This document shows, piece by piece, positions 5,840 through 37,920 of a DNA stretch of 37,920 nucleotides. Below the pieces are notes generated by a model. It searched no databases, was not told where the DNA came from, and saw nothing but the letters and a program-made list of their open reading frames with translations. The stretch comes from a virus. Position numbers and translations under genes: made by a program. Position 1 is the first letter of the stretch. Each line of letters opens with the position of its first letter. The stretch lies in the UHGV virus genome UHGV-0126763, one strand, 5' to 3'.

Positions 5840-5871
5840 CATCTTATTCAACAACGGGAAGGAGATAGCAA

Positions 5872-6102: not shown

Positions 6103-6110
6103 GTTATTAA

Positions 6111-6142: not shown

Positions 6143-6218
6143 ATTACCAGAAACAAATCTCTATGGTTTTGCGTTTCTTTGCGAAGCCAACTCTATCTAA
6201 TCATTAAGGAAATTATCT

Positions 6219-6500: not shown

Positions 6501-6534
6501 TGTAGAAAGACTGGATCAATCCACAGGAGTCATT

Positions 6535-6696: not shown

Positions 6697-7504
6697 GTTA
6701 GCTGATTACAGGCCTCAACTGGAGGTCGTGGAGCATCGCGTGGCAGATACCGAAGATGGTTTCATGCGCGTTGCTAACGAGATTACCGACAGTCTGCTGA
6801 TGGCTGATTTAACCGTCCGGCAGTTGAAGGTGATGCTCGCTATCATGCGCAAGACATACGGATTCAATAAGCCGATGGATCGACTCACAAACACGCAGAT
6901 AGCAGCCATGACAGGTATTCATCACACTCATGTTTGCGCTGCCAAGCGCCAGCTTATTGAGCGTAAATTCCTCATTGCTGATGGCGTGAAAATCGGAGTG
7001 AACAAGGTGGTTTCGCAGTGGATTAGCCAGGACAGCTTAACATTAGCTAAAACAGCTAATAAAACATTAGCCAAGTCAGCTAATGGGTATAAGCCAAGTC
7101 AGCTAAACACAAAAGACAATATACAAAAGACAATAAATACAAATACCCCCTTACCCCCTAACGGGGGCGGCGATGGGCAGGTTAAACCTGAACGTCGCAA
7201 GGCAGAACGAATCGACTACGAATCCTTCCTGAACGCCTACAACACCGAAGTCGGTGACAGACTTCCACATGCTGTTGCGGTCAACGAGAAACGCAAACGT
7301 CGCCTGAAGAAAATCATTCCGCAACTGAAAACGCCAAACGTGGACGGTTTCAGAGCGTATGTCAGGGCGTTTGTGCATCAGGCCAAGCCGTTTTACTTCG
7401 GAGACAACGACACGGGCTGGACGGCAGATTTTGATTACCTGCTGAGGGAAGACTCGTTAACGGGAGTTCGGGAAGGGAAGTTTGCAGACAGGGGGATTGC
7501 ATGA
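6683..7504 (+). CDS. Replication initiator, O-like (P22 gene 18-like)
   Basis: 273 aa, AGGAG RBS, origin-like iterons embedded mid-gene, followed by helicase gene with ATGA overlap. Confidence 0.8.
7040..7140. repeat. Candidate replication origin: iterons plus AT-rich tract inside the O-like gene
   Basis: GCCAAGTCAGCTAA occurs twice (7070-7083, 7092-7105) with related TTAGCTAAAA/CAGCTAAT units, then A-rich tract with AAAAGACAATA twice. Confidence 0.5.
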
Positions 7505-8877: not shown

Positions 8878-8902
8878 CCATCTACATCACTGAGCTAATA
8901 AC

Positions 8903-8934
8903 AGGCCTGCTGGTAATCGCAGGCCTTTTTATTT
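8903..8934 (+). terminator. Intrinsic terminator after replication genes (tR2-like position)
   Basis: AGGCCTGC-tggtaatc-GCAGGCCT stem-loop followed by TTTTTATTT. Confidence 0.6.
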
Positions 8935-8950
8935 GGGGGAGAGGGAAGTC

Positions 8951-9391
8951 ATGAAAAAACTAACCTTTGAAATTCGATCTCCAGCACATCAGCAAAACGC
9001 TATCCACGCAGTACAGCAAATCCTTCCAGACCCAACCAAACCAATCGTAGTAACCATTCAGGAACGCAACCGCAGCTTAGACCAAAACAGGAAGCTATGG
9101 GCCTGCTTAGGTGACGTCTCTCGTCAGGTTGAATGGCATGGTCGCTGGCTGGATGCAGAAAGCTGGAAGTGTGTGTTTACCGCAGCATTAAAGCAGCAGG
9201 ACGTTGTTCCTAACCTTGCCGGGAATGGTTTTGTGGTAATAGGCCAGTCAACCAGCAGGATGCGTGTAAGCGAATTTGCGGAGTTATTAGAGCTTATACA
9301 GGCATTCGGTACAGAGCGTGGCGTTAAGTGGTCAGACGAAGCGCGACTGGCTCTGGAGTGGAAAGCGCGATGGGGAGACCGGGCAGCATGA
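8951..9391 (+). CDS. ninB: NinB recombination protein
   Basis: Start chosen at [10 protein letters not shown] (ATG 8951, GGGAGAGGGAAG RBS) giving 146 aa, matching lambda NinB length and sequence as recalled; ORF-track start 8933 is upstream in frame. Confidence 0.8.
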
Positions 9392-9561
9392 TGCGATGTT
9401 ATCGGTGCGGTGAATGCAAAGAAGATAACCGCTTCCGACCAAATCAACCTTACTGGAATCGATGGTGTCTCCGGTGTGAAAGAACACCAACAGGGGTGTT
9501 ACCACTACCGCAGGAAAAGGAGGACGTGTGGCGAGACAGCGACGAAGTATCACCGACATAA
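9388..9561 (+). CDS. ninD: Small Cys-rich nin-region protein, NinD-like (57 aa)
   Basis: ATGATG start overlapping the ninB stop; [11 protein letters not shown]...WCLRCE zinc-ribbon-like cysteines; length matches lambda NinD. Confidence 0.55.
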
Positions 9562-9704
9562 TCTGTGAAAACTGCAAATACCTTCCAACGAAACGCTCCA
9601 GAAATAAACGCAAGCCAATCCCAAAAGAATCTGACGTAAAAACCTTCAATTACACGGCTCACCTGTGGGATATCCGGTGGCTAAGACATCGTGCGAGGAA
9701 ATGA
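9528..9704 (+). CDS. ninE: NinE-like small protein (58 aa), not in ORF track
   Basis: GTG start 4 nt after AAGGAGG; hand translation [57 protein letters not shown]; overlaps neighbours in other frames. Confidence 0.5.
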
Positions 9705-10081
9705 CAATGGATTATTCACAGTTAAGTGATTTTGAAATTAACTTAAAAGTCGCGCATATCGTGCTAGGAAAAAACAATTACGACTGGGATCCAGAAAAGA
9801 AAGAAGTTTACTTGGCTGGAATTGATGGTGGTGAGTTTTTGCCTTGCGGATATTTTGACCCATGTAATATGGCCGCTGACGCATATCCGATCATCACTGA
9901 AAACAAAATTAGCACCATGTGGATGACAGCGGAAAAAGAATGGTGCGCATGGTCAGGAGGTGATTTAGAGGAAGGTTGTTGGGAATGGGAAAATATTCCT
10001 GGCTACTACTTCTGCGGCGAATCGCCTCTCCGCGCCGCCATGATTGTCTTTCTCATGATGCAGGACGCCAATAATGCTTAG
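9701..10081 (+). CDS. Hypothetical nin-region protein (NinX-like?)
   Basis: Start at MTMDYSQ (ATG 9701, GAGGAA RBS, ATGA overlap with NinE-like stop); ORF-track start 9665 is in frame upstream. Confidence 0.55.
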
Positions 10082-10250
10082 CCCATCCCAATCCCTTCAA
10101 TACCAGAAAGAAAGCGTCGAGCGGGCTTTAACGTGCGCTAACTGCGGCCAGAAGCTGCATGTGCTGGAAGTTCACGTGTGTGAGCACTGCTGCGCAGAAC
10201 TGATGAGCGATCCGAATAGCTCAATGTACGAGGAAGAAGACGATGAGTGA
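10074..10250 (+). CDS. ninF: NinF-like small Cys-rich protein (58 aa), not in ORF track
   Basis: Hand translation [58 protein letters not shown]; stop overlaps next gene start. Confidence 0.5.
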   Translation: MLSPSQSLQYQKESVERALTCANCGQKLHVLEVHVCEHCCAELMSDPNSSMYEEEDDE

Positions 10251-10512
10251 TTTCTCTGAGCTTATTTCCTTCAAAAAAGACAGAGAAGAAATGCGGACTG
10301 AATCTGTCTATTACGTTCAACACCGGAATAAACGCTCTGTGCTTGATCAGGAGCTGGTTATTACCGGAGACCTGGCATTCAGAACATATAAGGCCAGCAT
10401 GGAAATGAAGGATTTCCCTAAATGTGGTTCTGAAAGAGAAGCCGCGTTAAAGCTGGCTGAGTGGATGCAGAGAATGGCTGCTGCAATTGAGAATTACTGG
10501 AGTGAACCATAA
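10243..10512 (+). CDS. Hypothetical nin-region protein
   Basis: 89-aa ORF, translationally coupled on both sides. Confidence 0.55.
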   Translation: MSDFSELISFKKDREEMRTESVYYVQHRNKRSVLDQELVITGDLAFRTYKASMEMKDFPKCGSEREAALKLAEWMQRMAAAIENYWSEP

Positions 10513-25882: not shown

Positions 25883-27953
25883 CGCAGATACGATTAAAGA
25901 TTTCCTTGTTTCGCTGGGATTCGATATCGATCAGGCTGGCGCTAATAAGTTTGAAGCCGTGCTGAAAGGCGTTACCGCGAACGTTCTGAAGGTCGGCGCG
26001 GTGGTGGAAGGCGCAGCGCTGAGCATTGTCGGATTTACCACCCAGATCGCGAATGGTCTGGATAAAATTTACTGGGCATCCCAACGGACGGGGGCCAGCG
26101 TCCAGGGCATCAAAGCGCTGGGCTATGCCGCATCGCAAACCGGTGCCAGCGCTGAGTCGGCCATGTCCTCCCTCGAAGGGCTGGCTGGCTTCATGCGTAG
26201 CAATCCGGGGGCGGAAGGGTTCCTGAACCGTCTTGGTGTCCAGACCCGCGATGCCAGCGGAAAGATGCGTGATACTGCTGCCATCTTTACTGGCGTTGGG
26301 CAAAAGCTCAACAACATGCCGTATTACCGCGCGAAGCAATACGCGCAGATGCTCGGTATCGATGAAAACACGCTGATGGCGATGCGGCGCGGCATGAATG
26401 GCTTTACCGCCGATTACCAGTCTATGCTGCAAAAGACGGGGTTCAACGCTGATAAGGCAGCCGTTCAGTCCAACAAATTCATGACGTCCATGCGCGGGCT
26501 TACGTCGCTGTTCGGCATTGTGCGGGACAAGATCGGCTCAAATCTCGCTGGTGGTCTGGCTGGTTCGCTGGACAGCCTGCGGCGGCGCATCCTCGACAAT
26601 TTCCCGAAGATTGAAGAGACGCTGACCAAAGTTATTAAGGGCGTGATCTGGCTTGCAAACGCCTTCACACGAATGGCGTGGCGGCTTATACAGGGCGCTG
26701 GCTCTGTCATTGACTGGTGGAAGCGTCTTGATGATGGCAGTAAAAATCTGCTGAAAATATTCGGTGCTCTACTGGTCGCATGGCGTCTGCTTAATTCTGC
26801 GTTCCTGAAATCCCCGATTGGAATTATCACCACACTGATTCTGGCGATCGGATTGCTGTACGACGATTACCAGACGTGGAAAGAGGGCGGTAAAAGCCTG
26901 ATTGACTGGTCCAAATGGCAGCCAGAAATTGAGCAGGCAAAGAAGGTGTTCAAGTGGCTGCGCGATAAGTTTCTGGAGCTCAAGGACAACCTCGGCGGCT
27001 GGAAAAATACGCTTACCATCCTGTTTGGCTTTCTGGCCGGTGCGAAGCTGTTCTCCATGCTCACTGGTATCGGGCGACTTGTCGCCGGATTTATGGGGCT
27101 CGGTAAGGCAATTGGCGGCTCTATTGGTGGGCTGGGTAAGCTGGCGCAGGGGATCGCTCAGTTGGCAATCAAGAATCCCTGGTTGCTTATGTTCATTCCT
27201 GCCAACAATACGCCGACCACCAGTGAAGAAATGGCGTCGATTGGCGGTATAGGCAGCAATATCGTACCTGAAAGGCAGCAGGCATATGAGGCGCTGAGAA
27301 AGGAAAATCCCGGCAAAGACTTTTTCACTGATGAGCAAATCCAGCGAAAAATTCAGGAGATGGGACTGGAGCCGGAGCAGCGAGCGCAGTCGGTTAAACG
27401 CCCACAAGCCACAGCGCAGGGCAAGGTTTTGCTCGACTGGATGGGGCCATTGTTCAATAAGCTGGAGTCTCTTTATCAGCTGCCTGCTGGCCTGTTGAAA
27501 AGCGTGGCGATCACCGAGTCGGGTGGTAACCAGTTCGCTGTGTCCGGCGCAGGCGCGAAAGGACTGTTTCAGTTTATGGATGGCACGGCGCGCGACATGG
27601 GCCTGCGTGGGAATGATGTATTCGACCCGGAAAAGTCAGCTCAGGCAGCCGCTAAGTACCTCAGCCAGCTGTTGCGGCAGAACGGCGGAGACCTTAGCAA
27701 AGCACTGGCATCATATAACTGGGGGATCGGGAATGTTAAGCGTTATGGAATGGGGCTAATGCCGCAGGAAACGCGCAACTACATTCCGAAAGTAATGAGC
27801 AATATGCCCACCAGCGCCCCGGTGATTCAGCAGGAAACGAATATTAACATCCACGGTGTTTCCGATCCGCGTGAAGCTGCCCGTTTGACTGTTGACCGTC
27901 AAAAGGGCGTGAATTCACAGTTAACCCAGCAACTCCCCGCAGGACCGAGATAA
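25872..27953 (+). CDS. Tail tape measure protein with C-terminal SLT lytic transglycosylase domain
   Basis: 693 aa; central hydrophobic/Gly-rich segments; C-terminal ESGGNQFAVSGAGAKGLFQF...YNWGIGNV matches soluble lytic transglycosylase motifs. Confidence 0.8.
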   Translation: MSGNADTIKDFLVSLGFDIDQAGANKFEAVLKGVTANVLKVGAVVEGAALSIVGFTTQIANGLDKIYWASQRTGASVQGIKALGYAASQTGASAESAMSSLEGLAGFMRSNPGAEGFLNRLGVQTRDASGKMRDTAAIFTGVGQKLNNMPYYRAKQYAQMLGIDENTLMAMRRGMNGFTADYQSMLQKTGFNADKAAVQSNKFMTSMRGLTSLFGIVRDKIGSNLAGGLAGSLDSLRRRILDNFPKIEETLTKVIKGVIWLANAFTRMAWRLIQGAGSVIDWWKRLDDGSKNLLKIFGALLVAWRLLNSAFLKSPIGIITTLILAIGLLYDDYQTWKEGGKSLIDWSKWQPEIEQAKKVFKWLRDKFLELKDNLGGWKNTLTILFGFLAGAKLFSMLTGIGRLVAGFMGLGKAIGGSIGGLGKLAQGIAQLAIKNPWLLMFIPANNTPTTSEEMASIGGIGSNIVPERQQAYEALRKENPGKDFFTDEQIQRKIQEMGLEPEQRAQSVKRPQATAQGKVLLDWMGPLFNKLESLYQLPAGLLKSVAITESGGNQFAVSGAGAKGLFQFMDGTARDMGLRGNDVFDPEKSAQAAAKYLSQLLRQNGGDLSKALASYNWGIGNVKRYGMGLMPQETRNYIPKVMSNMPTSAPVIQQETNINIHGVSDPREAARLTVDRQKGVNSQLTQQLPAGPR

Positions 27954-28555
27954 TGGATATTTTATCAGCGATTTTTCGCCAGCAATCCCGGCGAATTGGC
28001 CTGCTGATCCCCAGCGTGGTCGTCTCCGAAAAGCATTCTGATGCGCTCGAAATTACTGAGCATCCGGTGGAGAAGCCAACAACGAATAGCGCGTCGGGTT
28101 TCATCGCCGATCATGCGTATAAGCGTCCCAGCGAAGTCACAATGGAATGCGGCTTCGCTGGTGGCGGTTCGTTGCTGGACTTCATCGATACATCTTCAAT
28201 CGGCCTCAGCGCCGGACTGAGCCCGAAAGAGACTTATCAGCAATTGCTGGATCTCCAGTCCTCTCGGGTGCCGTTCGATGTGGTGACTGGCAAGCGGGTG
28301 TACAGCAATATGCTGGTGCGCGCCATCGAGGTGACGACCGATAAAACCAGCGAGAACGTGCTGAACTGCACGCTTACCCTGCGTGAAGTCATCATAACGC
28401 AGACAAAAAATGTCACCGTTGCAGATAAATCAGATATGCAGGATGGCGTCAGCACATCGGCGGTGCAGAATTCCGGGATGAAATCCACTACACCGCCAAA
28501 CGAATCCTTGCTGAGCCAGCTGGGCGGAAGCGTTACATCAGCATTCGGGGGATGA
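27953..28555 (+). CDS. Tail/baseplate-associated protein
   Basis: 200-aa ORF coupled (TAATG) to tape measure stop. Confidence 0.5.
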   Translation: MDILSAIFRQQSRRIGLLIPSVVVSEKHSDALEITEHPVEKPTTNSASGFIADHAYKRPSEVTMECGFAGGGSLLDFIDTSSIGLSAGLSPKETYQQLLDLQSSRVPFDVVTGKRVYSNMLVRAIEVTTDKTSENVLNCTLTLREVIITQTKNVTVADKSDMQDGVSTSAVQNSGMKSTTPPNESLLSQLGGSVTSAFGG

Positions 28556-28556
28556 T

Positions 28557-28862
28557 ATGCAGTTTAACGAAATACCGCTTTCTCCTGACAATCAGCAGTT
28601 CCGCGTTTTGCTGGGCAATACCACGTATACACTCAGGATCATCTGGCGTGATGCGGCTGGCTGGATTATGGACGTGATGGATAGCGGCGGTGCTGCGCTT
28701 CTTTCTGGCGTACCTCTCCTGACCGGCGTGAACCTATTACGACAATATCCACAGCTTGGCATTGATGGCGCGCTGGTGGTGGCGACCGATAAGGGCGCAC
28801 CAGACGAGCCCACCAAAACCAACCTCGGCACATACAGCCACCTCATTTTCGTACAGGAGTAG
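28557..28862 (+). CDS. Hypothetical tail protein
   Basis: 101-aa ORF in tail operon. Confidence 0.5.
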   Translation: MQFNEIPLSPDNQQFRVLLGNTTYTLRIIWRDAAGWIMDVMDSGGAALLSGVPLLTGVNLLRQYPQLGIDGALVVATDKGAPDEPTKTNLGTYSHLIFVQE

Positions 28863-28864
28863 AA

Positions 28865-29929
28865 ATGTCTCTTAACTGGATGCGCCATTTTGAGCTGCAA
28901 CTGTTGGACCAGAACGGGCAGGGCGTTTCCCTGTCTGACTTTAAGGTCACGTTCCAGATCGAGTGGGCAGACACACGCTGGCCACGCGTGGCGAACGTGA
29001 AAATTTACAACCTTTCGACCGATACCACGAACAAGATACTTGGGCAGGAGTTTGCCAAAATTCGCATCATTGCCGGGTATGACGGTATAGTGCCGGATGT
29101 TGATGCGAGCCAGGTTGGTGTGTCCCGGGAGATTTCACCAGACCAGATAGGGCAGGTGAACGGTCAGAACTACGGCCTGATTTTTGACGGTGATATTCGC
29201 TTCACCGTCACCGGGAAGGACAACATTACGGATTCCTGGGTGTTGATTCAGGCCATTGGTGATCACGAAGCGTTCCTCTATGCGACCACCATCACCACGC
29301 TTGCCGCTGGCTATACCGTTGCGGATCTGCACCGGGCGACGATGCAGGATTTCAACGCGTTCGGCGTGACACAGGGCATTACCGGCGATTTTCCTGATAC
29401 CGTGTTTCCTCGTGGCCGCGCGATTTACTCATCCAGCCGCAACGTGATGGATAATATTGCTGCGCAGTGCAAAGCGACATGGCAACTGGTGGATGGTCAG
29501 GTCCAGATGGTGCCGGAGGATAAATATATTCACGAAGCCATTGTGTTGAATGCCAATACTGGCCTGATCGGTATGCCGCAACAGACAATGGGCGGCGGCG
29601 TAAACGTGCGGTGCCTGATAAACCCAAACATCCGCATTAATGGTCTTATCCAGCTCGATCAGGCTTCGGTGTACCGCGCCGCGCTCGGCAATAGCGAAAT
29701 CGCACAGTCGCCCGGTCGTATCACTGAAACGGAAGAGAACGGCAACCGCGCACTGACCGGCACAACGTCACAGGCTGCCAGCATTGCGACAGATGGCGTT
29801 TATATCGTCAAAGCTATCGACTATACTGGCGACACCAGAGGTCAGGCGTGGTACATGGATTTGATGTGTTTTGCGCGTGGCAGTCGTGATTTAGTTAATG
29901 CTGGTGCTATGCAAAAAACAAACTACTGA
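28865..29929 (+). CDS. Putative baseplate hub / late-control D-like tail protein
   Basis: 354 aa, GGAG RBS, position between tape measure and spike gene. Confidence 0.5.
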   Translation: MSLNWMRHFELQLLDQNGQGVSLSDFKVTFQIEWADTRWPRVANVKIYNLSTDTTNKILGQEFAKIRIIAGYDGIVPDVDASQVGVSREISPDQIGQVNGQNYGLIFDGDIRFTVTGKDNITDSWVLIQAIGDHEAFLYATTITTLAAGYTVADLHRATMQDFNAFGVTQGITGDFPDTVFPRGRAIYSSSRNVMDNIAAQCKATWQLVDGQVQMVPEDKYIHEAIVLNANTGLIGMPQQTMGGGVNVRCLINPNIRINGLIQLDQASVYRAALGNSEIAQSPGRITETEENGNRALTGTTSQAASIATDGVYIVKAIDYTGDTRGQAWYMDLMCFARGSRDLVNAGAMQKTNY

Positions 29930-29939
29930 GGTACGGGAC

Positions 29940-30275
29940 GTGAAACTCGTAATTTTTATCATTGCAGCATTATTTTCTTTCCAAGCTATTGCTGATTCTC
30001 AGTGTGGTGATTTCAAAATCCATTGGGCTGATGATGGTTTCGCTCGCGTAAACGGAGCTAAACCTGAATCGCAAAAAGTGACATTTCTTAAAAATGACGG
30101 TGATTATAACAACGTCAAAATTGAATGGCGCTTAGCGACCAATCAACCAGGGCGATGGGTAGGAATGGAGTTTATTGGCCGTAATGGTAAAGCAATCCTG
30201 AATGCTCAGTGGCTGCAAGCCAGCATGGATTCGCCGCGTCAGTATGCAACATACGACTGCCGAAAAGTAAAATAG
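29940..30275 (+). CDS. Secreted small protein (Sec signal peptide), moron in tail module
   Basis: GTG at 29940 with GAGG 8 nt upstream gives MKLVIFIIAALFSFQAIA followed by DSQCGDF (AXA cleavage site); two Cys in mature part; AT-rich; ORF-track ATG at 29898 lacks the signal peptide context. Confidence 0.55.
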   Translation: MKLVIFIIAALFSFQAIADSQCGDFKIHWADDGFARVNGAKPESQKVTFLKNDGDYNNVKIEWRLATNQPGRWVGMEFIGRNGKAILNAQWLQASMDSPRQYATYDCRKVK

Positions 30276-30293
30276 CCCGCCAGATAGGCGGGC
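30275..30293. terminator. Hairpin between convergent moron genes
   Basis: GCCCGCC-agata-GGCGGGC; on the minus strand it is followed by T-rich CTATTTTACTTTT. Confidence 0.45.
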
Positions 30294-30298
30294 ATGCG

Positions 30299-30589
30299 TC
30301 AAAAATATTGAGCTTTAATTATAATAAACACAATAATTACGAACAGGATGTTTCTAATTATTTTTTGCTTATGAGTAAGTTGTTTTTTTTCTGTCGATTT
30401 CCCGGGAGAGTAAAGGTTAGTGGTATGCGACAGCCCCGTGCCGGGAAGGCCATTTGTCATCTTTACGCCTTTTTTTCCGATGTTAATGGTGGAACCTTTA
30501 CCACCAATTGAAGTGCTTACTCCGCTTTTACTAATGTTGATCGCGAGTCCGGGCGCAATCCGGATTCTTTTACGAAATCTAAATCCCAT
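30299..30589 (-). CDS. DUF4236-like protein with C-terminal membrane anchor, opposite-strand moron
   Basis: 96 aa; AGGAG RBS 6 nt upstream of ATG; N-terminal MGFRFRKRIRIAPG...SKSGVSTSIGGKG...GLPGTGLS resembles DUF4236 from memory; C-terminal hydrophobic ILFVIIVFIIIKAQYF. Confidence 0.65.
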   Translation of the reverse strand: MGFRFRKRIRIAPGLAINISKSGVSTSIGGKGSTINIGKKGVKMTNGLPGTGLSHTTNLYSPGKSTEKKQLTHKQKIIRNILFVIIVFIIIKAQYF

Positions 30590-30776
30590 TTGTTACTCCT
30601 GTAGTCAATAATGCGATGGTGCAGGTCCACTCTATGGCGGCTTCATGGCTGAAATTGATTTTCAATGCTTACTTGTTGCAAACATATCCTAATACACCTT
30701 GTGAATGTGTGCCATTGCAGCGGAAAAGCCTTACTTCACACTGATGTGGCTTAGTTACTAAGAGATAATTGATACC

Positions 30777-30800
30777 AAACCAGCTTCGGCTGGTTTTTTT
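30777..30800 (+). terminator. Intrinsic terminator preceding baseplate genes
   Basis: AAACCAGC-ttcg-GCTGGTTT followed by TTTTT, 12 nt before the baseplate spike ATG. Confidence 0.55.
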
Positions 30801-30811
30801 ATGGGGGTTTT

Positions 30812-31552
30812 ATGCCAATTCCAACTCAATCACAGATCGGCGGTGAGCAGCAGACCGCGCAGGCCATTGTCGATTCGGTGTCTACCCAGATGCGCGTAGC
30901 GATGCCCGGCATCATTCAGTCGTTCGATCCTGACACTGTTACCTGCACAGTAGAGGTAGCGCTTCGCGGTATTGTTGGCGATGGCTCCACCGAATTAAAA
31001 CCGCTGGTGGATGTGCCGGTTATCTTCCCGCGCGGCGGCGGTTGCACGCTGACCTTTCCGGTAAAAGAAGGCGACGAGTGCCTGCTGATCTTTGCCGACC
31101 GTTGCATCGATTTCTGGTGGCAGAGCGGCGGCGTTCAGGAGACCGTCGACCCGCGCCAGCATGACTTATCTGATGCGTTCGCCATCGTTGGCCCGCAGTC
31201 GCAAGCGCAGAAAATCAGCGGTATCAGTACCAGCGCCGCGCAGCTGCGAACCGATGATGGCTCGGCGTTCGTAGAGGTCGCAGCAGGGCATAACATCACC
31301 GTTAAAACGCCGGGCAAGCTTACGGCTACGGCTGAGGGTGGAACGACAATCACATCCCCGACTATCACGCTGAACGGCAACGTAACGATTAATGGCAATC
31401 TGTCTCAGGGAATGGGAGAAAGTGGTGGTACTGCGACGATGCTTGGGCCGGTTACGGTAACGAATGATGTGACAGCTTCAGGTATAAGTGTCGCCACGCA
31501 TAAACATGGCGGAGTTCAGGCAGGCGGGGGAACTACTGGAGGGCCGCAATAA
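30812..31552 (+). CDS. Baseplate spike / assembly protein V-like
   Basis: 246 aa; N-terminal OB-fold-like region then Gly/Thr-rich beta-helix-like C-terminus typical of gpV/Mu gp45-type spikes. Confidence 0.65.
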   Translation: MPIPTQSQIGGEQQTAQAIVDSVSTQMRVAMPGIIQSFDPDTVTCTVEVALRGIVGDGSTELKPLVDVPVIFPRGGGCTLTFPVKEGDECLLIFADRCIDFWWQSGGVQETVDPRQHDLSDAFAIVGPQSQAQKISGISTSAAQLRTDDGSAFVEVAAGHNITVKTPGKLTATAEGGTTITSPTITLNGNVTINGNLSQGMGESGGTATMLGPVTVTNDVTASGISVATHKHGGVQAGGGTTGGPQ

Positions 31553-31905
31553 TGCGATACCGTCGCGAAGATGCTGACGGCGATTACACTTTCGGGCAGG
31601 GTGACGACACCTTCCTTATCGACAGTCCGGAATGTGTCGCCCAGGCCGTGAAAACCCGTTTCGAACTGTGGCGCGGTCAGTGGTTTCTCGATCTGACGGA
31701 AGGCACGCCGTATGTTCAGTCAGTGCTTGGGAAACAGCGATCAGACGTCTACATCCTGGCTATACGCGAACGCATACAGGACACGCCGGGCGTTCTGTCG
31801 ATTCTTTCCTTCGATACCAATTATGACGGCACCAGCCGCCGCGTCACTTTCACTTCCTCCATTGACACAATCTACGGCCAGACGACTGTAACAAGCGAGG
31901 CATAA
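31552..31905 (+). CDS. Baseplate protein (Mu gp46 / W-like)
   Basis: 117 aa, coupled to spike gene, upstream of J-like gene. Confidence 0.5.
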   Translation: MRYRREDADGDYTFGQGDDTFLIDSPECVAQAVKTRFELWRGQWFLDLTEGTPYVQSVLGKQRSDVYILAIRERIQDTPGVLSILSFDTNYDGTSRRVTFTSSIDTIYGQTTVTSEA

Positions 31906-33105
31906 ATGGCTTTGAACCTCGACACGCTGGGGCTATCGGCAACGGTAACCGCCCAGGGGATTAGTGCGCCTGATTACCAGACAATCCTCGATACACTGAC
32001 CAGCTATTTCAGGCAGATTTACGGTAGTGATGCCTACCTCGAACCAGACAGCAAAGATGGGCAAATGGTCGCGCTGGTGGCTCTGGCTGTGCATGATGCT
32101 AACAATACCGCTATCGAGATCTACAACTCGTTTTCACCGACGACAGCGCAGGCCGCAGCGCTTAGCAGCAATGTGAAAATTAACGGGATCACGCGAAAAG
32201 TAGCGACAAACTCTACTGCTGACCTTCTGTTAACCGGTACGGCGGGCACGACTATCACGAATGGCTCCGCACGGGATAAAAACGGCATTATCTGGAATTT
32301 TCCCGCGAGTGTAGCAATCGGGGTTGATGGTACTGTGCTGGTGACGGCCACATGTGCGAATAGCGGTTCGGTTGCGGCGATGGCCGGGACTATCACCACC
32401 ATTAATACACCGACTCGCGGCTGGGTGTCGGTAACCAACCCGGCTGCGGCTACTGTCGGTTCACCAGCTGAAACCGACGCAGAGCTGCGCATCAGGCAGG
32501 GGCAAAGCGTCGCTCTGCCGTCACTCACACCGTTTGAAGGTGTCGACGGTGCGATCGCCAACGTTGCAGGCGTGACTCGTCACAAGCTCTACGAGAATGA
32601 TACTGGTGCTACCGACAGCAACGGGCTGCCTCCTCATTCCATTTCCGCCATCGTCGATGGTGGGGATGTTACCGAGATAGCTCAGACCATCAGGGGGAAT
32701 AAAGGGCAGGGAACGGCAACCTACGGGACAACTTCTGTCACGGTGCCGGATACTTACGGTAATCCTCACGTCATCAGTTTTTCACGCTCTACCGATGTGC
32801 CAATTTTCGTAGCCATTACCCTGAAAGTTTTTACCGGGTATACCTCTCAAATCGGCGAGCAGATCAAACAGGCTGTTGCCGACTATATTAACGGCCTGAC
32901 AATTGGCGACGACGTTCTGCTGAGCCGTATTTATTCCCCGGCAAACCTTGGTGTTGTGAGCGGCGGTAATGCCCGATATTACGACATTACCGAACTGCTG
33001 ATCGGTAAGTCGTCTGGCAGCGTATCGGCATCAAATATTGATATTGCCTATGATGCTTCGGCGTCCTGTAGCACCGCGAATATCACAATCACGGTGACCT
33101 CATGA
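31906..33105 (+). CDS. Baseplate J-like protein
   Basis: 399 aa, canonical position after W-like gene. Confidence 0.65.
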   Translation: MALNLDTLGLSATVTAQGISAPDYQTILDTLTSYFRQIYGSDAYLEPDSKDGQMVALVALAVHDANNTAIEIYNSFSPTTAQAAALSSNVKINGITRKVATNSTADLLLTGTAGTTITNGSARDKNGIIWNFPASVAIGVDGTVLVTATCANSGSVAAMAGTITTINTPTRGWVSVTNPAAATVGSPAETDAELRIRQGQSVALPSLTPFEGVDGAIANVAGVTRHKLYENDTGATDSNGLPPHSISAIVDGGDVTEIAQTIRGNKGQGTATYGTTSVTVPDTYGNPHVISFSRSTDVPIFVAITLKVFTGYTSQIGEQIKQAVADYINGLTIGDDVLLSRIYSPANLGVVSGGNARYYDITELLIGKSSGSVSASNIDIAYDASASCSTANITITVTS

Positions 33106-33782
33106 GCAAATACACCGAACTGATCACTAACTACCACGCTACCAAGCCACTCTTTTTTGACCATATAGACCTAAGCACTCGCCCGCTGATTGATGTGTCC
33201 AGGACTATGTCAGGGCTTGTAACAGCCTTCGATATCGATACGGCGGTCGGCGTGCAGCTCGACACGCTCGGGATCTGGATTGGGCGTAGTCGTATAGTCA
33301 GCCAGCCAATTAGCGGCGTTTATTTCAGCTGGGACACTGACGGCCTTGGATATGACCAGGGCGTCTGGCAGGGGCCGTATGACCCGGATTCGGGCTATAC
33401 GACGCTGAGCGATGACACCTACCGCATCATTCTGAAAGCGAAAATAGCGATCAACAACTGGGACGGCCGGAACGACTCGCTGCCGCCCATTCTTGACGAA
33501 GCGACGGCAGGCTCTGGCCTGAAGATGCAGATCGTCGACAATCAGGATATGACGATATCGGTTTGGGTATTTCCCGAGACTGACATTTCGGACGTGTCTC
33601 TCGAACTGATCGCCGCTATCAAGCAGGGCTATCTCACTGTTAAAGCTGCTGGCGTGTGGGCCGGTGATGTTGAAACGCCTTCGGTAGAAACACCGTCTGA
33701 AGGCACTAAGTTTTTTGGGTTTGATATGGATAACGAATACATCGGTGGGTTCGATGTGGGAGCATGGGGGACTTTACTCTAA
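33102..33782 (+). CDS. Tail protein (Mu gp48 / P2 I-like position)
   Basis: 226-aa ORF coupled between J-like and fiber genes. Confidence 0.5.
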   Translation: MSKYTELITNYHATKPLFFDHIDLSTRPLIDVSRTMSGLVTAFDIDTAVGVQLDTLGIWIGRSRIVSQPISGVYFSWDTDGLGYDQGVWQGPYDPDSGYTTLSDDTYRIILKAKIAINNWDGRNDSLPPILDEATAGSGLKMQIVDNQDMTISVWVFPETDISDVSLELIAAIKQGYLTVKAAGVWAGDVETPSVETPSEGTKFFGFDMDNEYIGGFDVGAWGTLL

Positions 33783-34720
33783 TGGCAACAAATAACTTTA
33801 AAGCGTTCGCGCTTGATCCTAACGCTAACGTCATGTCACAGGCTGACTGGGAAGCGCTACCGACACTACTATCAGGATTTACTTCAGGTAAGGCATCCAG
33901 TGCGCAGGTGAATAAAGCGCTTAGACAGTCGTTGTTTATTGCTTCTGCCTTGGCTGAATTTGTATCAACGACACTGAATACAGATATCCTTGATGATGGT
34001 GATATCAATGGGTTCATGAGTAAATTGACATCTGCATTACAGTTAAATTCTCCAGGGCGTCTCATTAATATTCAGACTATCACTACTTCAGGAACGTACA
34101 CAAAAACACCTGGTGCGAAGCATGCTTTAATTCGTGCAGTAGGAGGGGGGGCAGGTGGTGGCGGGGTTCCTGCCACTTCATCAACGACTCAGTCAACAGC
34201 AAAAGGTGGGGAATCTGGCGCTTATATTGAAGCGTATGTTGATCTAAGTTCTGTGACTTCTTTATCTGCAATTATTGGTGCTGGTGGAGCTGGAGCCATT
34301 GCTGGCAGCAATAGCGGGACATCTGGCGGAACGACTTCCTTAGGGAGTCTAATTTCATGTCCAGGTGGTGAGCCTGGAATTGGTGGGAATACCAGCGCAG
34401 CAAGTTTTGTATCATCTGACAGGGCATCAAATAAAGCGCCAATGTCAACAGGTAGGGTTTTGGTTTCAACGCCAACATCGTTACCAAACCTTGCCCGCGT
34501 AGCAAATCCATCAGCTCCTACTGTTGGTGGTACCGGTGGATCTAATCCTTTAGGGATTGGGGGGGCTGCTGGAGGCGCCTTACCAGGAACTCCAACAAAT
34601 CCCACCAATGCAACCGGGTATGGTAGCGGAGGTGGAGGAGGTGCATCTGTGGGCGGCAACGCTGCAATGGGAGGAGCCAACGGAGCACCTGGGGTTATTA
34701 TTATTATGGAGTATGCCTGA
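33782..34720 (+). CDS. Tail fiber protein with glycine-rich C-terminal region
   Basis: Start at MATNNFKAFA (TAATG overlap); N-terminal region resembles conserved side-tail-fiber N-domains; C-terminal half Gly/Ser/Thr-rich. Confidence 0.7.
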   Translation: MATNNFKAFALDPNANVMSQADWEALPTLLSGFTSGKASSAQVNKALRQSLFIASALAEFVSTTLNTDILDDGDINGFMSKLTSALQLNSPGRLINIQTITTSGTYTKTPGAKHALIRAVGGGAGGGGVPATSSTTQSTAKGGESGAYIEAYVDLSSVTSLSAIIGAGGAGAIAGSNSGTSGGTTSLGSLISCPGGEPGIGGNTSAASFVSSDRASNKAPMSTGRVLVSTPTSLPNLARVANPSAPTVGGTGGSNPLGIGGAAGGALPGTPTNPTNATGYGSGGGGGASVGGNAAMGGANGAPGVIIIMEYA

Positions 34721-35118
34721 TGAAATGTGCATTAATAAAAAGCAATCAAGTAATAAATATTATTGAAATAGATGAGGAAGGGATTAATGAATTCACAGGT
34801 GGTCAATTAATTTTAATTCCTGAGGGTGAGGTTGTAGATATTGGGTTTTCGGTTGATGGTGATGCTTTTATACCTCCGCCAATATCTGAGTTGACTGATG
34901 ATGAAATAAAGCAACTGAACGAGTCGAAAAGAAAAGAGAAGGTGGCTATTGCGGTTAATTACATATCGCAAAACTCATTGGATTCTAAACTAATGCTTGG
35001 AATGCTTTCTGATGAAGATAAACGCAAATATGCTCAAATTATTACTTACATAGATGATTTGAATTCAATGACATTGGGTTCCTTTTCAGATGTGACTTGG
35101 CCTAAGCAACCGTTTTAA
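34720..35118 (+). CDS. Putative tail fiber assembly chaperone
   Basis: 132 aa, ATGA overlap with fiber stop, GGAG RBS, AT-rich, C-terminal ...DVTWPKQPF. Confidence 0.5.
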   Translation: MKCALIKSNQVINIIEIDEEGINEFTGGQLILIPEGEVVDIGFSVDGDAFIPPPISELTDDEIKQLNESKRKEKVAIAVNYISQNSLDSKLMLGMLSDEDKRKYAQIITYIDDLNSMTLGSFSDVTWPKQPF

Positions 35119-35123
35119 CTAAT

Positions 35124-35149
35124 TGCGCACGGATAGAATTCCGTGCGCA
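35124..35149. terminator. Hairpin between convergent tfa and acyltransferase genes
   Basis: TGCGCACGG-atagaatt-CCGTGCGCA, 9-bp perfect stem; flanking U-tracts weak. Confidence 0.4.
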
Positions 35150-35156
35150 GTGGAAA

Positions 35157-36200
35157 TTACCCTGTAAATATGCTAAGGAATGTTTTTTGAAATGATTTGT
35201 TTTTATTTTTAGCGTTAATTAATGCTACTATACTAACTTGCAGTTTTACCATTATTGTAGCAAGTGTGTAAGTAAGTACATAACTTATTAAATAATGACT
35301 ACCTATTTTTTGACACATTATGATAAATGGGATGTGCCATAAATAAATCCAAATGGAGTTTTGGGATATGAATGAAACAACCTGCCATAATCTTAAAACC
35401 TTAAGTAAAAGAACAGCTTTGTTTGAGAGCAGATAGACTACGAATATCATAAAGGTTGCATAGGACATGTAATATATCCCAGGTGGGTACTTGTCTGACT
35501 GAGTTGGATTAAAGGCACCCAAGGTAATAATGTAATATGCAGTCATGGCAGAAAATAATAATCCACAGATAATGGTTGGGGGTAATAATTCTTTATGATC
35601 AGTGCTTGCAATTTTATAACCAATGATGAAAGCAAGTGTATAAGATATAGAGTTTGATATGTATGTCCCCAAAAGTATATAAATGCTCAACTTGTCAATT
35701 CCATTATACAATGGAATTAACTGGCTATTAATTAATAAAAATGACGCGGATATTGTTAATATCGCTTTTAAATTAAGTGTGTATAGTTTTGGAGGAATGA
35801 AAGTGGCTATCACTGATATTATGAAAAAGAGTCTAATAACCCACACATAACCAAGCCCACTGGATAATGCGAATGATGTTATTATAATTGACTTATTGTA
35901 AGTAAAGTCTTTTATATTAAAAATAAACGAAATGATTTCATTTATTAAGAAAAATGCCGCGAAGAAAATCCAAGTTGGTAAAACTAAACGGCGAAATCGA
36001 GAATTAATATATTTTATTCTGTTGCTATGGCGATGTTCGGTTACACAAAAGGACATCCCCATAACCATAAACATTAAAGGAACATCAAAGTTTCGCAGTT
36101 GAGCTAGCCATAAAGGAGGCTGGACATGGGCTAGAATGATTAGAGAAAGCCCGAGAAATCTTAAAAAATCTATTTTATCAATACGCATGACTTCGTCCAT
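35157..36200 (-). CDS. Acyltransferase family 3 integral membrane protein (putative O-antigen acetyltransferase)
   Basis: 347 aa, about 10 predicted TM segments, N-terminal IDFLRFLGLSLIILAHV motif typical of acyltransferase-3 (OafA/Oac-like); strongly AT-rich; sits between tail fiber genes and integrase. Confidence 0.8.
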   Translation of the reverse strand: MDEVMRIDKIDFLRFLGLSLIILAHVQPPLWLAQLRNFDVPLMFMVMGMSFCVTEHRHSNRIKYINSRFRRLVLPTWIFFAAFFLINEIISFIFNIKDFTYNKSIIITSFALSSGLGYVWVIRLFFIISVIATFIPPKLYTLNLKAILTISASFLLINSQLIPLYNGIDKLSIYILLGTYISNSISYTLAFIIGYKIASTDHKELLPPTIICGLLFSAMTAYYIITLGAFNPTQSDKYPPGIYYMSYATFMIFVVYLLSNKAVLLLKVLRLWQVVSFISQNSIWIYLWHIPFIIMCQKIGSHYLISYVLTYTLATIMVKLQVSIVALINAKNKNKSFQKTFLSIFTG

Positions 36201-36676
36201 TAGATTTTATAGATCAACGATTATACATTAGTATTGATCGGCTATGACACCATTGCTTATAGGTATGCTCTCTGTTGTATGAGTACAGCTCAGGAGCTTC
36301 GCCTTGGTTTGTTATAGCTTACGGTGCCGATTTACGATGTCGGAGTGCCGACACCGTATCGCAAATTCCCGGTAGGCAGTGGTTAGACACGATGCAGGCC
36401 GCCGGTGATTGTTGAGACTGGCAGCCTGCATAATTTACAGCCCAACCTGGCGAACTGTCGGGAACTCAGATACCAGCCACATATCGGCTTCTTCAAACAT
36501 ATCCTCGTTTCTGGTCAAGTGAGGAGTGAAAATTCATGTGCCATTTTTGTGTCACACAAGGTGAAGCATCTAACATTGTCTTGCATCATGTGCCATTAAG
36601 TTTCTTATAGTGAATGCGGCAATGTGTATGTAAAACAGCTAGTTAAATGTGATTCTACTAATTCGTAATGCGAAGG
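36201..36676. other. Candidate attP-containing intergenic region
   Basis: 476-bp non-coding gap between moron and int; 12-bp direct repeat TCATGTGCCATT at 36534-36545 and 36586-36597; core not identified. Confidence 0.3.
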
Positions 36677-37834
36677 TCATGTGACGTTACCGTCTATCCA
36701 GTCCGCCCACCATTGCATCATTTCTCTGCGCTTATCGAGATACTGAGCATGATTGTAAATTCCACGCACAGATCCGCCGTTGGCATGTGCCAGTTGCACT
36801 TCAATGGCGTCGGCAGGCCATTCGTGCTCGTTCATAATCGTGCTGAATTCATGCCTGAATCCGTGACCGCTTTCCAGACCTTCATAGCCGATTTGTTTGA
36901 TCACAAGCAATACCGCGTTCTCGCAGATTGGCTTCTTCTTATCGTTGCGCCCGGCAAAAACAAACTCTGAGACTGGTTTAGTGATGGAGCTTAGCGTAGT
37001 GAGAAGCTCAACCACCTGGTCTGACATAGGAACAACATGAATTTTGCGTCCCTTCATCACATTGGCGTCGATGGTGATAATCCTGTTTTCAAAATCGACG
37101 TTCTTCCATAGCATGGAACGAAGCTCTTTTGTTCTGAGGGCTGTGTAGCGTAAAACTTTGGTCGCAATGAGCGATACGATACTTCCTGAAAATGTTGCAA
37201 GTGCTTTGTTGAATTCCGGGATCTGGTCTGCAGGAAGAAACGGGAAGTTCTTCTTGCGGTATCCCTTCATGGCGTCAGCAAGGTCAGGTGACGGGTTATA
37301 TTTAGCCCTTCCGGTGACAATAGCGTAACGGAAAACCTCGCCGCATCTTCTGCGTGCTTTGTTGGCTCGCTCCATTGCGCCGCGATCTTCAAATCTGCGG
37401 ATTACTTCCAGCAGTTTCATCGGCTCAATATCCTGAATTTCAAGGCCGCCGATGATAGGTAAAATGTCGTCATCAAACATCTTTGCAAGTTCATTTGCAT
37501 AGCCTACTGACCAGACTTGCTTCTTGTGCTCGTACCATTCCTTGTAAATGGCGCTAAAGGAATTGTTGTTAGACGAAGCCTTTTTCGCCTTTACCGGATC
37601 GATGCCAACCGAGATGTCTTTCCTCGCAGTCCATGCTTTATCCCTTGCCTCCTGCAAAGTCATAAGCGGATATTTTCCTACGGTCAGTATTTTTTCCTTA
37701 CCGTCAATCTTGTAGCGAAGCTGCCATACCTTTTTCCCGGATACAGGGACATAAAGGTACAGGCCATTACCATCGAGAAGGCGATATGGTTTTTCTTTCG
37801 GCTTTGCTGCTTCAATCTGCTTAACGGTGAGCAT
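36677..37834 (-). CDS. int: Tyrosine integrase (P4-like family)
   Basis: N-terminus MLTVKQIEAAKPKEKPYRLLDGNGLYLYV typical of this family; C-terminal catalytic region with RHEFST and HANGGSVRGIY; ORF-track start 37870 is an upstream GTG. Confidence 0.85.
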   Translation of the reverse strand: MLTVKQIEAAKPKEKPYRLLDGNGLYLYVPVSGKKVWQLRYKIDGKEKILTVGKYPLMTLQEARDKAWTARKDISVGIDPVKAKKASSNNNSFSAIYKEWYEHKKQVWSVGYANELAKMFDDDILPIIGGLEIQDIEPMKLLEVIRRFEDRGAMERANKARRRCGEVFRYAIVTGRAKYNPSPDLADAMKGYRKKNFPFLPADQIPEFNKALATFSGSIVSLIATKVLRYTALRTKELRSMLWKNVDFENRIITIDANVMKGRKIHVVPMSDQVVELLTTLSSITKPVSEFVFAGRNDKKKPICENAVLLVIKQIGYEGLESGHGFRHEFSTIMNEHEWPADAIEVQLAHANGGSVRGIYNHAQYLDKRREMMQWWADWIDGNVT

Positions 37835-37920
37835 GGGTAAAAATCCGGTGGGTAAAATTATTTTATCCACTTTTTACCCGTCATGGAGTGCGGCTGTCAA
37901 CGATCTGACGCGAACCATGA

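Follow-up and report, generated by a model that had tools for sequence, protein, structure and literature searches.

Results

The right end of the window, by which I mean the whole 37,920-bp stretch of DNA that was analysed, carries an integrase gene on the minus strand, and its left end a minus-strand early-left operon. Both had been reported in the earlier note on this DNA, and the open reading frame 36677-37834 with its Pfam domains and the gene identities at the left end agree with that description. The features at the right end are as follows:

35157-36200, minus strand: Acyl_transf_3 membrane acyltransferase of 347 aa (Pfam PF01757, E = 8e-22)
36201-36434, no strand assigned: spacer separating the acyltransferase gene from the dinI remnant, 99.5% identical in E. 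coli FACU 2024
36435-36506, minus strand: dinI pseudogene remnant, the last 23 codons plus stop (72 bp)
36507-36533, no strand assigned: junction between the dinI remnant and the putative relic arm, 27 nt without a clear homologue and with a weak alignment to the outer P arm of HK446
36534-36660, plus strand: putative relic P arm of a thrW-type attP, with the motif TGTGCCAT starting at 36537 and 36589
36661-36678, plus strand: putative relic core ATTCGTAATGCGAAGGTC, the first 18 nt of the 46-nt thrW-type att core
36677-37834, minus strand: int, a tyrosine recombinase of the IntS/Sf6/HK620 type, 385 aa, ATG at 37834
37835-37920, no strand assigned: predicted int-proximal part of the P' arm of an argW-type attP/attL (repeats and match to HK620)
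37871-37876 (-10, TAAAAA) and 37895-37900 (-35, TTGACA), minus strand: putative intS promoter, boxes as in PMC2951348

At the left end, the first two features are:

1-48, minus strand: start of a conserved early-left gene for a Cys-rich (CPKC...CPEC) product of 65 aa, truncated by the window edge after 16 codons
50-493, minus strand: Ead/Ea22-like early-left gene, the first complete gene (Pfam PF13935, E = 2e-23)

Further minus-strand early-left genes at this end are DUF2737, Gp157, RecT and N.

The integrase consists of the Pfam domains Arm-DNA-bind_3, Phage_int_M and Phage_integrase, and its gene is 96-97% identical at the DNA level to the int genes of HK633, Sf6, HK620, CUS-3 and IME10, which places it in the IntS/Sf6/HK620 family, with a predicted arm-binding domain (Arm-DNA-bind_3) at the N-terminus. 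It differs from the HK620 integrase in the last ~7 codons, which read WIDGNVT and stop instead of WLDEKVE and stop. The start at GTG 37870 proposed by the ORF finder was rejected, as the relatives start elsewhere (ATG at 37834), and no gene overlaps the 5' end of int. The exact integrase protein is encoded on nine contigs; it adjoins yfdC in all seven of the seven places shown, and argW lies beside it in both contigs that were scanned for argW.

Metagenomic contigs identical to the window continue past both of its edges. On the right, contig L014 is 100.000% identical to 26677-37920 (11,244 nt) and proceeds for 75 nt beyond 37920, after which follow tRNA-Arg(CCT) argW, yfdC, mlaA, fadL, fadI and fadJ; the argW-type core, as part of tRNA-Arg(CCT), is found at the same 75 nt past the edge in L014 and in L017, which is likewise 100% identical. 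On the left, where contigs were retrieved with the exact Ead/Ea22-like protein as query, L021 and L022 are 100.000% identical to 1-10493 and add 1,529 nt of prophage DNA before the attR core and the host gene dsdC. The 65-aa open reading frame that is cut at position 1 runs on, identically, in these two and in four IMG/VR contigs. Leftward in L021 and L022 the order is the 65-aa gene, a 74-aa ORF, a DUF551 protein, a Lar-like protein, TorI and the core CTGCAGGGGACACCA, with dsdC-dsdX-dsdA-emrYK-evgAS as the host genes beyond it, so that L021 shows the argW-type core at the opposite end of the prophage as well. The sequence is thus continuous into argW on one side and into dsdC on the other, all identical contigs that were recovered are in the integrated state, and the layout torI ... 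tail ... intS-argW recurs in a related prophage of E. coli Ecol_224. Judged from contigs that match the two ends (11.2 and 10.5 kb), each locus covering one end, the window is almost certainly an internal slice of 37,920 bp from an E. coli prophage of ~39.5 kb in argW, trimmed at both ends. The earlier note had supposed a complete, circularly permuted genome, to be given up if host DNA adjoined 37920 and unrelated sequence preceded position 1; host DNA is indeed found 75 nt to the right, but the left side continues as prophage for 1.5 kb. The stretch with int, gap and acyltransferase (35100-37920) is in no complete E. coli genome at a coverage of at least 80%, and an exact 45-nt pattern from the gap was found in one related (92%) IMG/VR contig and had no match in the GTDB species-representative genomes.

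The 8-mer GGGTAAAA occurs three times in the whole window, always upstream of int, where ~1.2 occurrences are expected by chance. The repeats at 37835-37843 and 37850-37857 are direct and the one at 37871-37879 is inverted (TTTTACCC). An inverted repeat upstream of int had been noticed before, and the pair GGGTAAAA 37850-37857 / TTTTACCC 37872-37879 stands; the third GGGTAAAA copy at 37835-37842 had been missed. From 37835 to 37918, with a mismatch at 37919, the sequence is identical to a stretch of HK620 annotated as attP repeats (1207-1232 and 1232-1253) and 'prophage excision' promoter (1224-1273); the HK620 record has int at 50-1207 on the minus strand, attP repeats at 1207-1253 and 1441-1463, an attP core at 1368-1383 and hkaC at 1457-1657. 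In KplE1, PintS has the boxes TTGACA (-35) and TAaAAa (-10), the P'1 arm-type site overlaps the -10 box, and IntS was shown to repress its own gene via arm-type sites overlapping the promoter (PMC2951348). Furthermore, attL overlaps PintS, int is uncoupled from the RDF gene, and the recombination module is conserved in KplE1, HK620, Sf6 and CUS-3 (PMC2951348, PMC3509656). The GGGTAAAA cluster overlaps the putative sigma-70 intS promoter, which argues that it belongs to the true attP, and its three repeats are probably IntS arm-type sites. A promoter and terminator scan of 35100-37920 missed the documented PintS owing to its relaxed -10 box; it returned 12 promoters versus 7.4 +/- 2.7 in shuffles and two terminators versus 2.1, counts which are not clearly above the shuffles and were used as a weak hint.

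No argW core is present in the window in a search allowing up to three mismatches. Counted from the int ATG, the attP core TGGTGTCCCCTGCAG is 161-175 nt upstream, which puts it 75 nt beyond the right edge; it corresponds to the 3' end of argW. When attP is rebuilt from the flanking contigs, it is 97.8% identical to and collinear with the int-attP-hkaC region of HK620, and has five GGGTAAAA motifs, three inside the window and two beside torI. The predicted TorI of 66 aa (L021 11749-11949, ~1.3 kb to the left of window position 1) aligns with PDB 1Z4H along its entire length. These alignments place the functional attP upstream of int, between int and torI/hkaC, and indicate that the phage has an excisionase, TorI, at the prophage end opposite to int. 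The earlier proposal that attP lies at 36201-36676, downstream of int, does not survive this comparison, nor does the lambda order (tail, attP, int, xis) that came with it: the order found is that of KplE1/HK620/Sf6 (tail, moron, int, attP, xis). That no excisionase is encoded holds for the window, in which tblastn with TorI/HkaC, HkaB and lambda Xis (the latter an approximate query) gave noise (E > 0.2 for TorI/HkaC and lambda Xis), but not for the phage, with TorI just outside, to the left of position 1.

The 476-bp gap between int and the acyltransferase gene (36201-36676) is without a credible ORF; a 64-aa ORF at 36405-36599 has no Pfam family and was treated as spurious. As reported before, it contains a 12-bp direct repeat, TCATGTGCCATT, at 36534-36545 and 36586-36597, 52 nt apart. 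An exact 12-mer repeat occurs in 21 out of 5000 dinucleotide shuffles of the gap, and other 12-mers repeated within 100 nt are found at two loci only in the window, both in the ORF 6683-7504. This ORF aligns with a Phage_rep_O gene called on the identical contig L021.

The repeat belongs to a region that resembles the attachment sites of a different group of phages. The arm is 68-78% identical to stretches annotated attP in HK446, mEpX2, HK542, mEp213 and mEp043, and also to SfX. In HK446 and SfX, the motif TGTGCC[AG]T has four copies in the fetched locus, two of them 52 nt apart before the core and two beyond it (HK446 copies at 2511 and 2563, core at 2634; SfX copies at 114 and 166, core at 238). 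The second TGTGCCAT copy is 72 nt before the core here, compared to 71-72 nt in HK446 and SfX; from this conserved position and spacing, TGTGCC[AG]T may act as the arm-type site in attPs of the SfX/HK446 type. The 18 nt at 36661-36678 match positions 31-48 of K-12 thrW exactly (tRNA-Thr, anticodon loop to variable loop) and break off precisely where the int stop codon (36677-36679) lies. No tRNA gene was found in the window by ARAGORN, and the statement that there is no tRNA-like segment has to be corrected for this piece of thrW. The 46-nt core is used by SfI, SfII, SfV, SfX and P22 (its sequence is quoted in PMC3636060), and in E. coli LHM10-1 the same arm is followed by the full 46 nt. Here it is incomplete (18 of 46), the remainder being replaced by the 3' end of int. 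The P' arm of HK446 and SfX, with a further two repeats at 94-105 nt from the start of the core and inside the 3' end of their own int, corresponds in position to IntS coding sequence in the window. The only similar string there, CATGTGCCAGTT at 36784, was rejected as an att repeat because it is part of the conserved coding sequence of IntS and recurs in HK620, and a third repeat copy at 36677 was rejected because it is the int stop region.

The alignments establish homology with the annotated attPs at the sequence level, and the int-proximal 145 nt of the gap appear to be a relic of a thrW-type attP (SfX/SfV/P22/HK446). With a partial core, no P' arm and an integrase of the IntS family, the gap would therefore hold a remnant rather than a member of the thrW-type attPs, and it is probably non-functional. 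Accordingly, the view of the gap as attP was right in so far as it holds attP-like DNA with repeats, but these would be a truncated relic from another integrase family. A small RNA as explanation for the gap is unsupported, as Rfam returned nothing for the whole window at the gathering threshold and nothing for 36100-37920 at E <= 1.

Distal to the relic, the dinI remnant matches the 3' end of annotated DinI-family genes of E. coli (strains S163-2 and FACU 2024) at 95.8-99.5% identity; its translation, EDMFEEADMWLVSEFPTVRQVGL followed by the stop, is the C-terminus of an 88-aa protein. A hairpin with 15-nt arms (36392-36431) lies just 3' of the dinI stop. The spacer may be the promoter and 5' region of the acyltransferase gene, with a TATAAT, read from the sequence, at 36220-36225 on the minus strand, 19 nt before the ATG. 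The acyltransferase gene has a GC content of ~30% compared to ~47% in its flanks, had no tblastn match in the phage record collection, and occupies the position of oac in Sf6 and of gtr in SfX-type phages. It is a candidate low-GC moron for lysogenic conversion, modifying O-antigen or LPS.

Discussion

The arrangement described here is best explained by a lambdoid prophage that has a contractile-tail module and is inserted in argW through a recombination module of the KplE1/HK620/Sf6/CUS-3 type. The gene for IntS sits at one end of the prophage and reads away from argW, and TorI/HkaC lies across the core from int, which brings int and xis to opposite ends of the prophage. As the window ends 86 nt upstream of int, only the int-proximal part of the P' arm falls inside it, and what lies outside is the core with the P arm, torI and a further four small early-left genes; xis is missing from the window because this is cut short before the attP-torI segment. 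The 476-bp gap would be a mosaic scar, consisting outward from int of 18 of the 46 core bases, the P arm, the dinI remnant and the upstream region of the acyltransferase gene. The arm with tail and moron may once have been part of a phage with an int of the SfX/P22 type, in the order tail, moron, attP, int, xis. The SfX-type int would then have given way to an IntS gene, which also displaced the P' arm and the remaining core and left its junction at the int stop codon. The gene identities are firm; the direction and order of the replacement events are what the mosaic suggests. The relic is an example of known phage mosaicism and calls for no new mechanism.

The closest known system is the module of KplE1 (CPS-53), HK620, Sf6 and CUS-3 (IntS with TorI/HkaC, attB in argW), with which the window shares int DNA that is 96-97% identical and the promoter and arm-repeat cluster upstream of int, while the contigs continuing the window have the same 15-nt argW core, P arm and TorI; the layout of the prophage agrees too, int being at one end and xis at the other (PMC2951348, PMC3509656). 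It differs in that the module is found on a lambdoid genome with contractile-tail (SEN34/Omnitron-like) morphogenesis instead of on a P22-like podovirus, and in that a foreign attP relic abuts the int stop codon. The thrW-type attPs (SfX/SfV/SfI/SfII, P22, HK446, mEp213) align with 36534-36678 with the same spacing of the TGTGCC[AG]T pair and the same core start, and are located between a surface-modifying moron and int, as is the relic (PMC3636060). However, these phages have a complete core, a P' arm and the cognate int, and the window has 18 of 46 bases, no P' arm and an IntS-family integrase using argW. Lambda int-xis-attP has in common a heterobivalent tyrosine integrase (arm-type and core-type sites) and a small winged-helix RDF, but in lambda attP is downstream of int, here upstream, and int and xis are co-transcribed, while here they are not and are separated by integration. 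The int promoter, unlike in lambda, would lie inside attL, with autorepression shown for KplE1 (PMC2951348).

Alternatively, the window could derive from virion or circular phage DNA, or from a viral contig, in which assembly lost the ~1.6-kb attP-torI segment. In the circular form, the two ends of the window are indeed linked by precisely this segment, and databases hold prophage-derived as well as virion-derived records of such phages. However, I consider this unlikely, as two independent cuts that fall short of the att cores by 75 nt and 1,529 nt fit a slightly conservative call of prophage boundaries, a free genome is normally linearised once and anywhere, and every identical contig recovered is integrated. 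Such a loss would leave the biology unchanged, with the same attP position, xis outside and the relic in the gap.

A somewhat less likely alternative concerns the relic itself, as an SfX/P22-type Int of a co-resident prophage could still act on the thrW-type half-site through its P arm and the anticodon-loop portion of the core, leading to secondary integration or to rearrangements among prophages, or the arm of the half-site could have been kept as promoter and operators of the dinI-acyltransferase moron. The motif pair retains its 52-nt spacing and its distance of ~71 nt to the core, as in HK446 and SfX, the same ~140-nt element precedes moron genes (for an acyltransferase or a sialidase) by 70-150 nt in several E. 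coli prophages, and the fusion of relic and int 3' end is common to several lineages. On the other hand, 28 of the 46 core bases and the entire P' arm with its two repeats are missing, an SfX-type int is absent from the window, and the repeats are degenerate in TUM9812 and MS15047, with TTC for TCA before the first TGTGCCAT and TCATGTACCATC as the second; moreover, the scan gave no promoter at its threshold other than a weak ATGACC-17-TAGAAT. It is equally doubtful that the half-attP serves as a substrate driving rearrangement or module exchange between prophages, or that its P arm was co-opted as the dinI-acyltransferase regulatory region, although an active or co-opted relic, if true, would explain the persistence of the fusion in several E. 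coli prophage lineages.

Finally, a complete circularly permuted genome with contiguous ends, lambda order, attP in the gap and no excisionase could draw on the placement of int and the early-left operon at opposite ends on the same strand, on the attP-like DNA with direct repeats in the gap and on the absence of a xis homologue from the window, but is extremely improbable, given that both ends extend in 100%-identical contigs to prophage and then host DNA, that the joined-end junction ...GCGAACCATGA/TTCGGTATCAAG is absent from IMG/VR (exact search), that joining leaves 135 bp between int and the Ead gene (not the ~100 bp of the earlier note) and cuts the conserved 65-aa gene to 23 codons, that the record ends would be the exact points at which collinearity with relatives stops, which is not expected from arbitrary linearisation of a circle, that the gap, which goes with another integrase family, lacks a P' arm and retains only 18 of the 46 core bases, and that the exact integrase is beside argW/yfdC in every place shown. 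The ends are near-neighbours on the vegetative circular map, as had been thought, though not directly contiguous, with the attP-torI segment in between.

With the window read as a trimmed prophage, its status as such bears on claims of genome completeness and circular permutation. Where an IntS/P4-like integrase adjoins a tRNA gene, attP lies upstream of int, with the excisionase at the far prophage end, and expectations based on lambda mislocate attP and falsely suggest a missing xis. The putative fossil thrW-type attP would be a clean scar that can be dated, left at a gene boundary where one integrase module was swapped for another, and illustrates how lambdoid phages may change their integration site while retaining the tail and moron arm.

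Position of the window within a prophage

The integrase gene lies on the minus strand at the right end of the window, as the earlier note had it, and is translated from an ATG at 37834 down to 36677, giving a protein of 385 aa with the domains Arm-DNA-bind_3, Phage_int_M and Phage_integrase, the set of a heterobivalent tyrosine integrase. At the DNA level it is 96-97% identical to int of HK633, Sf6, HK620, IME10 and CUS-3, and over 2,000 E. coli genomes have a match to it named 'prophage integrase IntS'. The window ends are laid out as follows.

Left end of window, minus: early-left genes Ead/Ea22, DUF2737, Gp157, RecT, N and S24-peptidase repressor
Left of the Acyl_transf_3 gene, plus: tail-fibre and tail-fibre-assembly genes
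35157-36200, minus: Acyl_transf_3 gene, left of the gap
36201-36676: gap of 476 bp with no credible ORF
36677-37870, minus: int ORF, right end of window

From this layout a circularly permuted, complete genome in lambda vegetative order had been proposed. Contigs that are 100% identical to the window, however, run past both of its ends into prophage and then host DNA. In public assemblies, an identical Int protein is encoded on the nine contigs read; int adjoins yfdC and other host genes in 7/7 places shown, and on the longer contigs the Acyl_transf_3, tail-fibre-assembly and baseplate genes come next, ordered as in the window. Contig L014 (ENA ERZ1314729, NODE_138, 69.2 kb) is 100.000% identical to 26677-37920 (11,244 nt), and three further contigs (L017, L018 and L020) are 100% identical over shorter spans. 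Past the window's last base, L014 has 75 nt, then tRNA-Arg(CCT) with the 3' end CTGCAGGGGACACCA, and beyond this argW gene the host genes yfdC, mlaA, fadL, fadI and fadJ. At the other end, contigs L021 and L022, retrieved with the exact Ead protein, are 100.000% identical to window positions 1-10493 and continue to the left of position 1 as follows.

First: remainder of a 65-aa Cys-rich gene, 16 codons of which lie in the window
Next: 74-aa ORF, DUF551 protein and Lar-like 59-aa protein
TorI, 66 aa, full-length match to PDB 1Z4H
1,529 nt past the window edge: core, second copy
Host genes beyond the core: dsdC, dsdX, dsdA, emrY, emrK, evgA and evgS

These flanks make the element an argW prophage of about 39.5 kb (75 + 37,920 + 1,529 + 15 nt), of which the window is an internal slice. 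The excisionase gene that had been thought missing is thus the torI gene beyond the left edge, and the gene order is the prophage map of a phage with attP between int and xis; the lambda template had been applied to a truncated prophage window. Of the arrangement named earlier as contrary to a circular genome, host DNA right of 37920 is indeed found, after 75 nt, whereas the left side is still prophage up to the core. Joining the window ends directly would shorten the 65-aa gene to 23 codons; this gene is intact in four IMG/VR contigs and in phage 611R6, and the joined-end junction was not found in IMG/VR. E. coli Ecol_224 carries a related prophage laid out likewise, with torI at one end and intS-argW at the other.

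Three side observations concern other parts of the element. The 65-aa early-left protein (window 1-48, minus; L021 10446-10643) has two CxxC pairs (CPKC...CPEC), matches no Pfam family above threshold, and is identical in the four IMG/VR contigs, which come from different samples. Short, tandem-like direct repeats at 7069-7124 (plus) resemble ori iterons of the lambda type: two copies of AGCCAAGTCAGCTAA spaced by 23 nt, and two of ACAAAAGACAATA spaced by 14 nt. They fall in ORF 6683-7504, the counterpart of a Phage_rep_O gene called on L021. Amid the plus-strand baseplate/tail module, a 96-aa DUF4236 ORF (30299-30589, minus), called as a gene on L014, is possibly a moron within the tail operon.

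The attachment site upstream of int

In IntS/HK620-type phages, attP sits on the upstream side of int, with the excisionase gene beyond it, so that integration puts both genes at opposite prophage ends. In the HK620 record, int (50-1207, minus) is followed by two attP arm repeats (1207-1232 and 1232-1253) with an overlapping promoter (1224-1273), then by the attP core (1368-1383), a third arm repeat (1441-1463) and hkaC (1457-1657); HkaC and the KplE1 excisionase TorI are identical (PMC3509656). Panis et al. described an 'unusual organization' in which the intS promoter (-35 TTGACA, -10 TAaAAa) is overlapped by attL, the P'1 arm-type site overlapping the -10 box, and in which intS is repressed by both IntS and TorI; this KplE1-type module is also conserved in HK620, Sf6 and CUS-3 (PMC2951348). 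The corresponding boxes in the window are:

37871-37876, minus: -10 box of the intS promoter
37895-37900, minus: -35 box of the intS promoter

The inverted repeat noticed earlier upstream of int is real, GGGTAAAA at 37850-37857 and TTTTACCC at 37872-37879, with a third copy at 37835-37842, and these three are the only copies of the 8-mer in all 37.9 kb. Because positions 37835-37918 match their HK620 counterpart base for base, the repeat is the cluster annotated as attP in HK620, and its units are probably IntS arm-type sites. The argW core was not found within the window with up to three mismatches allowed. The window reaches only 86 nt beyond the int ATG, and the core in relatives starts 161 nt upstream of it. 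When attP is reassembled from L014, L021 and the window end, it aligns without gaps to the HK620 int-attP-hkaC region at 97.8% identity and has five GGGTAAAA motifs, three inside the window and two beside torI.

The recombination module is therefore of a known, experimentally characterised type, in a copy nearly identical to published ones, and the steps shown for that family can be carried over from this near-identity. IntS would bind both the argW core and the arm sites (GGGTAAAA), and together with IHF would integrate the circular phage at the argW 3' end, so that the tRNA is restored. The lysogen would then have the intS promoter within attL, where IntS would repress its own gene; upon induction, TorI expressed from the early-left operon at the opposite end would bend attL, direct excision and add to the repression of intS.

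A relic attachment site in the gap

Pairwise comparisons split the gap into mosaic pieces. Positions 36101-36506 are 99.5% identical to a tail-fibre-assembly/acyltransferase/dinI cassette of E. coli FACU 2024 and end in a dinI pseudogene stump:

36435-36506, minus: dinI-family remnant, 72 bp, last 23 codons, EDMFEEADMWLVSEFPTVRQVGL and stop

An intact 88-aa DinI-family gene lies between an acyltransferase gene and int or the prophage end in E. coli S163-2 and FACU 2024. The window's own membrane acyltransferase (347 aa; GC about 30% vs about 47% in the flanks) sits between the tail-fibre-assembly gene and int, the position of oac in Sf6 and of gtr in SfX-type phages, and is probably an LPS/O-antigen acylase, a lysogenic-conversion gene. 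A tblastn search of 50,697 phage records gave nothing for it at E <= 1e-5; its DNA is 99.5-99.7% identical to the FACU 2024 cassette, which adjoins CP4-6-type genes (ykfI, yafW).

The int-proximal piece, 36537-36676, recurs in just 13 of 5,426 complete E. coli genomes; the copies looked at lie 70-150 nt upstream of a minus-strand moron (acyltransferase/sialidase) or have an IS1 between them and the moron. In one of the 13, E. coli LHM10-1, it is followed by ATTCGTAATGCGAAGGTCGTAGGTTCGACTCCTATTATCGGCACCA, the 3' 46 nt of the tRNA-Thr gene thrW (K-12), which is the exact attP/attL/attR core reported for SfI, SfII, SfV, SfX and P22 (PMC3636060). The window keeps only the first 18 of these 46 bases (36661-36678), directly followed by the int stop codon and 3' end. 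No tRNA was found in the window; a tRNA-like segment, for which the earlier note had looked in vain, is present. In a sensitive search of phage records the element matched SfX and stretches of HK446, mEpX2, HK542, mEp213 and mEp043 annotated 'attP; prophage integration site; similar to thrW'. These phages have the lambda-like order tail, attP, SfX-type int, xis.

The 12-bp direct repeat reported earlier, TCATGTGCCATT at 36534-36545 and 36586-36597, is present; of 5000 dinucleotide shuffles of the gap, 21 gave an exact 12-mer repeat. By alignment and motif count, HK446 and SfX each have four copies of TGTGCC[AG]T per fetched locus in a single orientation: a P-side pair spaced by 52 nt, of which the second copy precedes the core by 71-72 nt, and a further pair 94-105 nt past the core start, within the int 3' end. 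In the window, the copies at 36537 and 36589 are likewise spaced by 52 nt, the second being 72 nt from the core, and this identifies the direct repeat as the conserved repeat pair of a thrW-type P arm, presumably arm-type sites. The int-proximal 145 nt of the gap are a fossil half-attP, so that the gap does hold attP-like DNA, but the working, argW-type attP is the one on the upstream side of int.

Most likely, an SfX/P22-type, thrW-integrating phage was the source of the tail-moron arm, and an IntS gene took the place of 28 core nucleotides, the P' arm and the SfX-type int. This fusion is also seen in TUM9812 and one IMG/VR contig and, with a short int 3' fragment, beside dacD in two genomes; its recurrence marks an inherited mosaic joint, not a one-off. 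Homology to various IntS alleles begins at 36677, 36684, 36690, 36693 or 36698, which makes the int 3' terminus itself a mosaic boundary; the last 7 or so codons (36677-36697) read WIDGNVT-stop here vs WLDEKVE-stop in HK620 and Sf6. The loci beside dacD-sbmC, in E. coli E89 (L024, 2501-2704) and MS15047 (L025, 2501-2701), have the relic P arm, the 18-nt core and about 60 nt of int 3' end at prophage ends with no intact int annotated, which suggests decayed or rearranged prophage ends with a common joint; in E89 the adjoining moron is a sialidase-family gene. Citrobacter phage Omnitron (CP115737.1), which among phage records comes closest in its structural genes (92.8% over 68% of 13000-37920), stops within the thrW-type P-arm element (41794-41923); its record probably derives from a prophage and was cut at a thrW att site.

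With neither a P' arm nor a cognate integrase, and with most of the core gone, the relic is most probably without recombination function. It may have survived because it carries or adjoins the promoter region of the conversion cassette; that it is still in use, via a trans-acting SfX-type integrase or as a regulatory region of the moron, seems very improbable. The fossil thrW-type attP accounts fully for the direct repeat and represents no new kind of system, but it is a tidy case of integrase-module swapping in lambdoid phages.
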